The position numbers and the translations under genes are program-made. From Eledone cirrhosa (lineage: Eukaryota): 64,000 nt of DNA. Positions within the stretch are counted from its first letter, which is position 1. Every line of letters begins with the position of its first letter. The notes under the pieces were generated by a model. That model was not told the DNA's origin. It made no database searches and saw nothing but the letters and a program-made list of their open reading frames with translations. The stretch covers positions 1-64,000 of the forward strand of contig CAXHJY010001130.1 in NCBI GenBank assembly GCA_964016885.1, read 5' to 3'. Positions 13,561-64,000 of this stretch are shown here, one piece after another.

Positions 13561-16202
13561 ATATAGACATAGAATATTCGAAAATATTCTGTATGTTTAT
13601 AATAAACATTTTGAAGACCTAATCGCTATAGAATAGAATACGTCACGTATTACAATTAGATTCTCGATAAAAGCAAGGGAAGTAAGTCTACGCGTTTCAT
13701 TCTCGTTAGAAATCGTCAGGACTACATATCCAGTGCTTTTATCGAGAATGACACAGCTAGAGACTTATAGAATACTTAGCTGTGTACAGGAACTGGTTGA
13801 AAGAGCGGTTGCCGGTCCGGCAGAAATTAGAAATTGGAATAAATGCTCTGAAATAGCGATATGTATGTGAATATAGACATAGAATATTCGAAAATATTCT
13901 GTATGTTTATAATAAACATTTTGAAGACCTAATCGCTATAGAATAGAATACGTCACGTATTACAATTAGATTCTCGATAAAAGCAAGGGAAGTAAGTCTA
14001 CGCGTTTCATTCTCGTTAGAAATCGTCAGGACTACATATCCAGTGCTTTTATCGAGAATGACACAGCTAGAGACTTATAGAATACTTAGCTGTGTACAGG
14101 AACTGGTTTGAAAGAGCGGTTGCCGTCCGGCAGAAATTAGAAATTGGAATAAATGCTCTGAAATAGCGATATGTATGTGAATATAGACATAGAATATTCG
14201 AAAATATTCTGTATGTTTATAATAAACATTTTGAAGACCTAATCGCTATAGAATAGAATACGTCACGTATTACAATTAGATTCTCGATAAAAGCAAGGGA
14301 AGTAAGTCTACGCGTTTCATTCTCGTTAGAAATCGTCAGGACTACATATCCAGTGCTTTTATCGAGAATGACACAGCTAGAGACTTATAGAATACTTAGC
14401 TGTGTACAGGAACTGGTTTGAAAGAGCGGTTGCCGGTCCGGCAGAAATTAGAAATTGGAATAAATGCTCTGAAATAGCGATATGTATGTGAATATAGACA
14501 TAGAATATTCGAAAATATTCTGTATGTTTATAATAAACATTTTGAAGACCTAATCGCTATAGAATAGAATACGTCCACGTATTACAATTAGATTCTCGAT
14601 AAAAGCAAGGGAAGTAAGTCTACGCGTTTCATTCTCGTTAGAAATCGTCAGGACTACATATCCAGTGCTTTTATCGAGAATGACACAGCTAGAGACTTAT
14701 AGAATACTTAGCTGTGTACAGGAACTGGTTTGAAAGAGCGGTTGCCGGTCCGGCAGAAATTAGAAATTGGAATAAATGCTCTGAAATAGCGATATGTATG
14801 TGAATATAGACATAGAATATTCGAAAATATTCTGTATGTTTATAATAAACATTTTGAAGACCTAATCGCTATAGAATAGAATACGTCACGTATTACAATT
14901 AGATTCTCGATAAAAGCAAGGGAAGTAAGTCTACGCGTTTCATTCTCGTTAGAAATCGTCAGGACTACATATCCAGTGCTTTTATCGAGAATGACACAGC
15001 TAGAGACTTATAGAATACTTAGCTGTGTACAGGAACTGGTTTGAAAGAGCGGTTGCCGGTCCGGCAGAAATTAGAAATTGGAATAAATGCTCTGAAATAG
15101 CGATATGTATGTGAATATAGACATAGAATATTCGAAAATATTCTGTATGTTTATAATAAACATTTTGAAGACCTAATCGCTATAGAATAGAATACGTCAC
15201 GTATTACAATTAGATTCTCGATAAAAGCAAGGGAAGTAAGTCTACGCGTTTCATTCTCGTTAGAAATCGTCAGGACTACATATCCAGTGCTTTTATCGAG
15301 AATGACACAGCTAGAGACTTATAGAATACTTAGCTGTGTACAGGAACTGGTTTGAAAGAGCGGTTGCCGGTCCGGCAGAAATTAGAAATTGGAATAAATG
15401 CTCTGAAATAGCGATATGTATGTGAATATAGACATAGAATATTCGAAAATATTCTGTATGTTTATAATAAACATTTTGAAGACCTAATCGCTATAGAATA
15501 GAATACGTCACGTATTACAATTAGATTCTCGATAAAAGCAAGGGAAGTAAGTCTACGCGTTTCATTCTCGTTAGAAATCGTCAGGACTACATATCCAGTG
15601 CTTTTATCGAGAATGACACAGCTAGAGACTTATAGAATACTTAGCTGTGTACAGGAACTGGTTTGAAAGAGCGGTTGCCGGTCCGGCAGAAATTAGAAAT
15701 TGGAATAAATGCTCTGAAATAGCGATATGTATGTGAATATAGACATAGAATATTCGAAAATATTCTGTATGTTTATAATAAACATTTTGAAGACCTAATC
15801 GCTATAGAATAGAATACGTCACGTATTACAATTAGATTCTCGATAAAAGCAAGGGAAGTAAGTCTACGCGTTTCATTCTCGTTAGAAATCGTCAGGACTA
15901 CATATCCAGTGCTTTTATCGAGAATGACACAGCTAGAGACTTATAGAATACTTAGCTGTGTACAGGAACTGGTTTGAAAGAGCGGTTGCCGGTCCGGCAG
16001 AAATTAGAAATTGGAATAAATGCACTGAAATAGCGATATGTATGTGAATATAGACATAGAATATTCGAAAATATTCTGTATGTTTATAATAAACATTTGA
16101 AGACCTAATCGCTATAGAATAGAATACGTCACGTATTACAATTAGATTCTCGATAAAAGCAAGGGAAGTAAGTCTACGCGTTTCATTCTCGTTAGAAATC
16201 GT
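13561..16202 (-). mobile_element. Tandem array of a 311-bp hammerhead-containing monomer (non-LTR retrozyme-like), ~8.5 near-identical copies
   Basis: Units start at 13561, 13871, 14181, 14492, 14804, 15115, 15426, 15737, 16048 and differ by single-base changes; each full unit has a minus-strand HHR; no ORF. Confidence 0.9.
13685..13723 (-). ncRNA. Minimal type I hammerhead ribozyme (first of 8 intact array copies; others at 13995, 14305, 14617, 14928, 15239, 15550, 15861)
   Basis: Minus strand: agtc CTGACGA t-ttct-aacg-agaa-t GAAA cgcg TA gact. Stem I agtc/gact is extended by ttctcgataaaagca (13661-13675) pairing with tgcttttatcgagaa (13734-13748); stem III is the palindrome CGCG. Confidence 0.9.
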
Positions 16203-16680
16203 TAGACTTACTTCCCTTGCTTTTATCGAGAATCTAATTGTAATACGTGACGTATTCTATTCTATAGCGATTAGGTCTTCAAAATGTTTATTATAAACAT
16301 ACAGAATATTTTCGAATATTCTATGTCTATATTCACATACATATCGCTATTTCAGAGCATTTATTCCAATTTCTAATTTCTGCCGGACCGGCAACCGCTC
16401 TTTCAAACCAGTTCCTGTACACAGCTAAGTATTCTATAAGTCTCTAGCTGTGTCATTCTCGATAAAAGCACTGGATATGTAGTCCTGACGATTTCTAACG
16501 AGAATGAAACGCGTAGACTTACTTCCCTTGCTTTTATCGAGAATCTAATTGTAATACGTGACGTATTCTATTCTATAGCGATTAGGTCTTCAAAATGTTT
16601 ATTATAAACATACAGAATATTTTCGAATATTCTATGTCTATATTCACATACATATCGCTATTTCAGAGCATTTATTCCAA
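16203..16680 (+). mobile_element. Inverted 1.5 copies of the 311-bp monomer, head-to-head with the main array
   Basis: Reverse complement of the array unit; starts ta|gacttacttccc, ends in (TA)n. Confidence 0.9.
16481..16519 (+). ncRNA. Minimal type I hammerhead ribozyme (inverted copy)
   Basis: agtc CTGACGA tttctaacgagaat GAAA cgcg TA gact; predicted cleavage after 16515. Confidence 0.9.
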
Positions 16681-62530: not shown

Positions 62531-62596
62531 TATTTTGTCTGATGAAGGCATAGCATATTGTTAATATGATATCCCCGAAATATATATAATGAAATA
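62531..62596 (+). ncRNA. Type I hammerhead (family A)
   Basis: tattttgt CTGATGA aggcatagcatattgttaatatgatatcccc GAAA tatata TA atgaaata. Confidence 0.82.
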
Positions 62597-64000
62597 AATA
62601 TGGTTTTATAAATATAGTTTTCCATTTATTTAATATTGTATATTTATATATATATATTTATATATATATATTTATATATATATATATATATATATATATA
62701 TTTATATATATATATATTTATATATATATATATTTATATATATATATATATTTATATATATATATATATATTTATATATATATATTTATATATATATATA
62801 TATATATTTATATATATATATATTTATATATATATATATATATATATATTTATATATTTATCAGTTATAAATATTTACTCGTTGTTAACCCAACAATTTA
62901 AATATAACTTTCCATGTATATATTTATATATATATATATATTTATATATATATATATTTATGTATATATATATATATATATATATATATATATATATATT
63001 TATATATATATATATTTATGTATATATATATATATATATATATATATATTTATATATATATATATATATTTATATATATATATATATATATTTATATATA
63101 TATATATATATATAAATATATTTATATATATATATATATATATATATTTATATATATATATATATATATATATATTTATATATATATATATATATTTATA
63201 TATATATATATATATATATATATATATATATATATATATATATATATTTATATATATATATATATATATATATATTTATATATATATATATATATATATA
63301 TATATATATTTATATATATATATATATTTATATATATATATATATATATATATATTTTATATATATATTATATATATATATATATATATATTTATATATA
63401 TATATATATATATATATATATATATATATATATATATATTTATATATATATATATATATATATTTATATATATATATATATATATATTTATATATATATA
63501 TATATATATATATATATATTTATATATATATATATATATATATATTTATATATATATATATATATATATATTTATATATATATATATATATATATTTATA
63601 TATATATATATATATATATATATATTTATATATACTCTTTTACCTGTTTCAGCCATCCGGCTGAGGCCATGCTGGGGCACCATATATATATACATATATA
63701 TTCATTAGTTAAGCAAAACAAGACCACAAATTTCACAAGGAAGACATTATTAAAAGATTGTCAACATATTTAGTTTGATGTAAGGAATGTAGAGAATAAT
63801 AATAATATTAATAATAATAATGCCCGTTTACAATTGTTCGCTACTCCGTATAATATTTCTGGATCAGACGACTATGTATCATAATTGATCTGGTTAGTTG
63901 AAAATAATTAACATATTTAAAAAAACAGAGTGGCTCATCGGAACTCAAAGGAATATAAATTAAAATATATAATTTATATTATGTAACATTATTTTAATTT

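Follow-up and report, generated by a model that had tools for sequence, protein, structure and literature searches.

Which enzyme copies the non-coding retrozymes of animal genomes, and does it work from a circle or from a line? The question is raised by the first 64,000 nt of contig CAXHJY010001130.1 of Eledone cirrhosa (GCA_964016885.1; GC 25%), the whole of which is called the window here, and in which hammerhead ribozyme (HHR) motifs of nine sequence groups (A, B, C, C', D, E, F, G and H) are associated with (TA)n tracts. Mobilization of animal retrozymes by Penelope-like elements (PLEs) has already been proposed from co-occurrence and terminal-repeat homology (Cervera & de la Pena, 2020, PMC7229834; Li et al., 2026, 10.64898/2026.07.22.740005), and a preliminary description of the window saw in it PLE drivers and non-coding members of one system. 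Here, after searching the 3.0 Gb genome, we find that PLE-derived and non-coding HHR elements do share (TA)n targeting and insertion architecture, but that at least two PLE types, Hydra and Neptune-like, occur in the window with different end spacings, so that the idea of one system does not stand. The window is probably a (TA)n sink for several endonuclease (EN)-bearing PLEs plus the retrozymes A, B and E, which would use the PLE machinery. The two-armed, staggered-end signature of A, B and E, as read from their genomic copies, is our sequence evidence that PLE enzymes copy these retrozymes.

Group A is a 311-nt unit whose HHR-unit pattern has 16,904 matches genome-wide (0 in the control) at >1,000 loci. 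A typical A locus consists of two multimeric arms whose 3' ends point outward into (TA)n and which are joined at variable phases, mostly with an overlap of a few bases. The outer ends lie at two fixed sites, about 130 nt (short) and about 165 nt (long) past the predicted cut; 1,013 long and 1,194 short ends are fused to TA genome-wide. When the first 179 listed ends on one contig (C1) were paired by exact matching, leaving other ends unpaired, all 53 pairs that faced outward over no more than 16 kb (median span 2.4 kb) combined one long with one short end, compared with about half expected if the ends were independent. In 17 position-ordered loci, all fetched from the first 100 matches, 11 of 11 two-armed insertions paired a long with a short end, and (TA)n adjoined 27 of the 28 ends seen. 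The window together with 14 best-match loci gave 11 of 13 two-armed loci that obey the rule; of the other two, one has a shifted end and one an end that is unreadable.

Every family has two preferred ends, with a spacing of about 30-35 nt in A, 54 in B, 55 in H, 85 in F, about 92 in C, about 97 in D, about 108 in E and 113 nt in G. An inverted copy with a 30-40 bp tail at one end has been described for PLEs (PMC3846280; PMC8557442); the Hydra-type tails found here are longer, at 85-113 nt. With a Poseidon protein, both strands are primed and synthesis begins at two positions inside the RNA, the interval between which is the genomic tail, a signature that the same report calls unique to PLEs (Frangieh et al., 2024, PMC11167929). 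As in its PAc element, two start sites of the reverse transcriptase (RT) downstream of the HHR would define the tail here, both strands would be primed and the target is AT-rich. Nevertheless, PAc is autonomous and its start sites in vitro are reported not to differ between strands, whereas here the RNA is non-coding and each arm has one site. In the open-access literature we found no published retrozyme array with the PLE tail, the two-arm signature and the one-site-per-arm rule, although the supplements of Li et al. (2026) could list similar arrangements.

Only A, B and E appear to be non-coding tandem retrozymes of the kind without long terminal repeats (non-LTR), each with a predicted ribozyme. 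They form tandem arrays elsewhere in the genome with one HHR per unit, the unit length of B being 424 nt in the window and about 460-520 nt elsewhere (it contains an internal microsatellite) and that of E 485 nt. With F, G and H as tblastn queries, in-sense PLE coding was found upstream of A in none of 17 loci, and upstream of B in none among the matches listed. A, B and E resemble metazoan non-LTR retrozymes (Cervera & de la Pena, 2020; Li et al., 2026) in having tandem units (311-520 nt) that are non-coding, a low GC content, a single type I HHR per unit, a short palindromic stem/loop III and co-existing PLEs, and differ from those described there in being (TA)n-targeted, mostly two-armed (A) and PLE-like in their staggered ends, with no parent carrying a pseudo-LTR (pLTR) found among the examined loci from few PLE families. 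Non-autonomous Chlamys elements such as MRC1 are likewise non-coding PLE passengers with multicopy head-to-tail insertions; they differ from the elements here in a 3' end similar to that of their drivers, and canonical HHRs are described as lacking in most of them (Craig et al., 2021, PMC8557442).

Some further observations concern A. The minimum free energy fold of its monomer is stable (z -4.2) and places the HHR on a long rod; it shows neither an active nor a dimeric core and is evidence neither way. At two loci, L256 and L259, a minus-strand arm of A with the long end adjoins a plus-strand RT-EN element of Penelope/Poseidon-like type and high GC; this element, too, runs out into (TA)n, and the core of its HHR-like motif is a variant one. 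The two loci could be chimeric two-armed insertions pointing to the driver of A, or two separate insertions. A candidate parent at another locus (L085), where a 56-nt A-like end lies near a Hydra EN fragment, was rejected: a TA tract lies between the two and there is no HHR. Three sequencing runs labelled as other organisms contained one 340-nt self-closing A contig, although a collapsed tandem array would look alike and the contig is therefore no evidence on circles or on expression. A also occurs at 95-100% identity in three runs (X4-X6) labelled as three other organisms, in which relatives, contamination and diet are indistinguishable.

The coding part of the window agrees with the preliminary description, which had attached three families to GIY-YIG/RT sequence: F contains a GIY-YIG domain (Pfam E 0.0024), G extends from the RT thumb to the EN and H contains RT (Pfam E 0.0002). 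Elsewhere in the genome, F and G are single open frames (821 aa and 785 aa, respectively) that encode RT and, C-terminally, GIY-YIG, present in many copies at 98% identity, with tandem periods of about 3.9 kb (F) and 3.6 kb (G); their proteins are 41% identical to each other, and in each of them both end sites sit between the HHR and the start of the open reading frame (ORF). Since Pfam gave no match for full-length F or G and PDB none for F, the clade calls rest on motifs (DKT; RW, as RWT in F and RWK in G; CxCx5C; CxxC; CxH; no Cx2-5CxxC), by which F and G would be Hydra-clade PLEs. That clade is known for canonical HHRs and (TA)n insertion, and its published supplement lists Hydra-1_Obim from Octopus bimaculoides (Craig et al., 2021); the PLE part of our observations is therefore known biology, HHRs and (TA)n targeting having already been published for Hydra PLEs. 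F and G (and C, C' and D by homology) share with the clade the C-terminal GIY-YIG, DKT, RW(K), CxCx5C and CxxC/CxH motifs, a type I HHR near the 3' end (in G only its core boxes and stem II), an inverted truncated copy and (TA)n insertion, which holds for both F and G. They differ from it in their longer units (compared with 'generally <3 kb'), 3' untranslated regions (UTRs) of 1.2-2.2 kb, very high copy number and, in G, the lack of a foldable HHR. A canonical HHR is found in F, C, C' and D, and only the core boxes in G. G is a young, intact and abundant Hydra-type family that has seemingly lost stem I and has a TA/TG microsatellite in its own 3' UTR. That G thrives without stem I suggests that cleavage is dispensable.

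H is older (about 90% aa identity) and has the linker CIDKKCIIC (Cx4CxxC) before a C-terminal GIY-YIG, together with a minimal HHR. Because of this linker and HHR we assign it, by motifs, as a probable Neptune-like PLE; it also resembles that clade in its C-terminal EN, its microsatellite insertion and an unpaired base 5' of stem II, and differs from it in its 55-nt tail. A fragment of the type of long interspersed nuclear elements (LINEs; 34384-36042) adjoins the inverted arm of H, and the stronger RT match at 34384-35256, on the strand opposite to H, looks like an unrelated LINE.

The count of several non-coding passenger families proved too high, since C, C' and D have coding parents and only A, B and E are non-coding. 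At 10 C/C'/D loci picked as likely long for a check of upstream coding, in-sense Hydra-type RT/EN was found 1.3-2.2 kb upstream in six, with one unclear and none in three. The identity of the window copies to PLE termini is 94-98% (21381) and 87-89% (62539) for C, 85-86% for C', and 95-97% (32424) and 82-85% (41755) for D. Because RT/EN lies upstream of matching termini, C, C' and D are taken to be 5'-truncated Hydra-type PLE 3' ends and not passengers, in keeping with the assumption made for most solo HHR motifs (PMC4209133). The HHR pattern of this type has 27,304 exact matches in the genome and 0 in a reversed control; among the first 30 matches on contig C1, TA lies within 160 nt downstream in 28 and upstream in 10, compared with 82 of 360 control positions. 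At one locus (L183, contig C5) four D termini stand in tandem at a spacing of about 300 nt with TA tracts between them; here a PLE end is being multiplied to form an array like that of a retrozyme.

The HHR motifs of the window are real. The preliminary description counted 24 with an intact core in at least eight families and gave no coordinates; rebuilding the list from the 37 CTGANGA sites of the window, we could assign 24 motifs to the nine groups. A type I descriptor (CUGANGA/GAAA/UH core, stem II ≥3, stem I ≥4) was passed by 20 of the 24, compared with a mean of 0.04 and a maximum of 1 match in 200 dinucleotide shuffles of the non-TA sequence; a stricter descriptor retained nine motifs, compared with 0.08 in shuffles. 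Two of the failures (62412 and 62539, in C copies about 80% identical to the 21381 copy) have A.C at the first stem II pair, and the other two (54303 and 56268, in G) lack stem I, having only the core boxes and stem II. The broken motifs reported earlier were also recovered, as a decayed E at about 36050-36470 and a truncated A unit at about 16200. Thirteen CTGANGA sites were rejected for not fitting the descriptor (31222, 33490, 34897, 35707, 35740, 41769, 42359, 44549, 47041, 51119, 54314, 55154 and 56257). In an Rfam scan the hammerhead family was absent among the 150 of 869 matches listed, nearly all of which were miRNA models below the gathering score on TA/hairpin sequence, so that the scan is uninformative. 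Stem/loop III is short and palindromic in most motifs (CGCG, CTAG, TATGTA, TGCGCA, CCGATCGG), a form reported to work as a dimer (PMC4209133). Among 86 distinct Hydra-type HHRs the first three pairs of stem II are 96% paired, compared with 80 +/- 1.5% in shuffles, a contrast that relatedness inflates, and AT/GC exchange occurs in stem II and in the stem III palindrome.

The target bias was observed directly as well: of 17 sites tested, one from each arm, all 17 have (TA)5 no more than 300 nt downstream, compared with 26% of random unmasked positions, although the match of B is an internal microsatellite and its true end is about 340 nt away. The earlier statement that the ribozyme-sense 3' end of the motifs abuts (TA)n holds for this adjacency but not for the part that abuts, which is the element 3' end, about 45-230 nt beyond the predicted cut, and not the ribozyme itself.

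Features of the window, with positions of their HHR motifs; the assignment of elements to families is predicted from sequence
Feature	Position	Strand	HHR (strand)	Description
Degenerate (TA)n array	382..24181 (TRF: 2247..24181)	no strand		about 22 kb; hosts A, B and one C copy
A, left arm	13566..16233	-	13719, 14029, 14339, 14651, 14962, 15273, 15584, 15895 (-)	8 HHRs in about 8.6 units (311 nt each); 3' end of the short kind, into (TA)n
A, right (inverted) arm	16203..16681	+	16485 (+)	about 1.5 units; long 3' end into (TA)n
B	19809..20524	+	20186 (+)	about 1.7 units (424-nt period); long end into (TA)n
C	21148..21465	both	21251 (-), 21381 (+)	two truncated 3' ends of Hydra-type PLE, forming a fold-back
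C'	26780..26936	-	26882 (-)	truncated Hydra-type PLE 3' end
D	32145..32527	both	32343 (-), 32424 (+)	truncated PLE 3' ends in two arms, with a long and a short end
H	32871..34437	-	33104 (-)	5'-truncated Neptune-like PLE; EN and a partial, internally deleted RT; long end in TA
H, short inverted arm	34347-34437			
E, decayed copy	36047..36475	+		core lost; ends at (TA)n
D-like	41693..41857	+	41755 (+)	truncated PLE 3' end
G	54045..56416	-	54303 (-), 56268 (+)	truncated Hydra-type PLE; EN ORF 55271-56341; long end about 54045; short end on the inverted arm, 56216-56416; only the core of the HHR
E	57255..57630	+	57478 (+)	0.8 of a 485-nt unit; HHR with long stem II
F	57727..61203	both	57913 (-), 61103 (+)	3.4-kb fold-back of Hydra-type PLE; EN fragments 59140-59879; long end left, short end right
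C, two-armed copy	62229..62640	both	62412 (-), 62539 (+)	long end left, short end right
C, isolated long-tail piece	62864..62910	+		inside (TA)n
SINE-like repeat copies	27360-27483, 36723-36879, 40509-40682, 45739-45936, 47293-47425, 48578-49043			

The two arms of an A locus also share their haplotype. Among 244 full units in 31 loci, the mean number of substitutions was 0.10 across arms, 0.12 within an arm and 2.07 between loci. In four two-armed loci every unit of either arm carries a variant that none of the other 30 loci has: 139G (26 units), 90A (10), 138G (6) and, in the window's own locus, 14C (9). None of the 31 arrays is mosaic for haplotypes, most of the fixed haplotypes are common to several loci, and B arrays also carry locus-wide variants. 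This uniformity of units fits repeated copying of a monomer, in a sample of 31 of >1,000 A loci.

We propose that a PLE protein with RT and GIY-YIG would bind one RNA as a dimer and nick both strands of a (TA)n tract, and that each target strand would prime reverse transcription, starting from two fixed positions within the RNA, downstream of the HHR. Both cDNAs would be cut short at variable points and then be joined, giving two outward-facing arms, one per site; on retrozyme RNA each RT would copy many units, so that a whole two-armed array could come from one template in one event. Two-site internal initiation, priming of both strands and the predicted dimer are taken from the Poseidon work (Frangieh et al., 2024), to which the proposal adds that PLE proteins would act on A, B and E in trans. 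A more specific version, which we offer only tentatively, is that arrays are single-step products in which a PLE dimer rolls round one ribozyme-made monomer circle, each subunit having its own site and strand. The spacing, set by the protein, would then name the driver, pairing B with H (54/55 nt), E with G (about 108/113 nt) and A with an unfound family of about 30-35 nt.

Several points weigh against the use of PLE machinery by A, B and E, or against parts of the proposal. No driver of A, B or E was identified by sequence, and, among the examined loci from few PLE families, A, B and E are unlike the F, G, H, C and D termini, apart from one 56-nt match (79%) between the A 3' end and an unlinked piece. 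The end rule is looser in E, in which two of four two-armed loci fit, one has two short ends and one an off-site end; few B short ends were seen (n=3), and the B/H and E/G matches in spacing could be chance. Some old B arrays have repeated higher-order patterns, and in one array of A the variant 103T is found again at a distance of six units; thus, local duplication also occurs. Finally, G is abundant and intact yet has no foldable HHR, and cleavage is reported to be dispensable in vitro, with uncleaved RNA as the main substrate and HHR mutants inserting normally (Frangieh et al., 2024); for these reasons the ribozyme may not matter for insertion.

This last point, together with cleavage in 1 of 9 retrozyme dimers (Li et al., 2026), favours a template different from the monomer circle. 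Insertion would still be PLE-driven, but from a linear multimer that an existing array transcribes and that stays uncleaved, the HHR being incidental, and we give this a chance not far short of even. Homogeneous source arrays predict haplotypes common to several loci, as are most of those found; the four loci with private fixed variants and the lack of mosaic arrays argue the other way. Private fixed variants need a one-unit bottleneck at some point, although source arrays outside our sample could explain them, and we regard circle and linear multimer as about equally likely templates. Within-locus homogeneity is also what concerted evolution gives, and the local duplications in old B arrays and one A array, with the D locus of four TA-separated copies, are what would be seen if arrays were satellites, formed by a single insertion of a PLE terminus or monomer and then amplified locally by unequal crossover (the scenario of Li et al., 2026). 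We consider this unlikely: it leaves unexplained >1,000 dispersed loci with inverted arms and differing junction phase, and the fixed staggered ends in 53 of 53 pairs and an identity across arms equal to that within them stand against it.

As the driver is not identified, A, B and E might be moved by an enzyme other than that of a PLE, such as a microsatellite-targeting LINE with twin priming; LINEs are present in the window (RT 34384-35256) and are left open as drivers by Cervera & de la Pena (2020). The two fixed internal 3' ends, the lack of poly(A) or a terminal repeat tail and a layout that matches the bona fide PLE insertions alongside make this very improbable. That the inverted arms are fold-back artefacts of long reads or assembly might be suspected from F, a 99.7% perfect 3.4-kb palindrome on a small, simple-repeat-rich contig, but is largely excluded: arms differ in length and outer end, flanks are not mirrored, the layout recurs on large contigs, and independent short-read contigs (run X1) show the A short end running into TA. 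A PLE enzyme thus remains the probable copier of A, B and E. A offers an integration signature at >1,000 young loci and two mapped start sites on a 311-nt RNA, with intact candidate enzymes in the same genome, and its strict one-site-per-arm rule constrains the PLE mechanism; who copies retrozymes, from circle or line, is directly testable in the existing in vitro assay.

The remaining features of the window are its repeats. TA-type simple repeat makes up 37% of it, and the array of about 22 kb, at the start of this small contig, has periodic CA/GA interruptions. The elements themselves are ordinary non-simple sequence, which gives no support to the earlier suggestion that simple-repeat masking would hide them. 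Other non-TA islands within TA tracts, at 24167-24784 and 1261-2245, have no CTGANGA core. A 91-nt tandem repeat occurs four times at 51717-52086 (92% alike), and a dispersed repeat of about 150-250 nt, resembling short interspersed nuclear elements (SINEs), has at least seven copies in the window. LINE-type RT fragments are found, besides that next to H, at 28500-28890, 44146-44358 and 47503-48432; Pfam matches to these fragments are RVT_1 (E 9.5e-20) with DUF6451, and zf-RVT at 47503-48432. A TA-flanked fold-back at 61256-61447, with 31580-31665, is a piece without an HHR of another abundant element that matches 32 examined loci, with two ends seemingly about 87 nt apart; it may represent the 3' end of a PLE that lacks an HHR, for example a Naiad.

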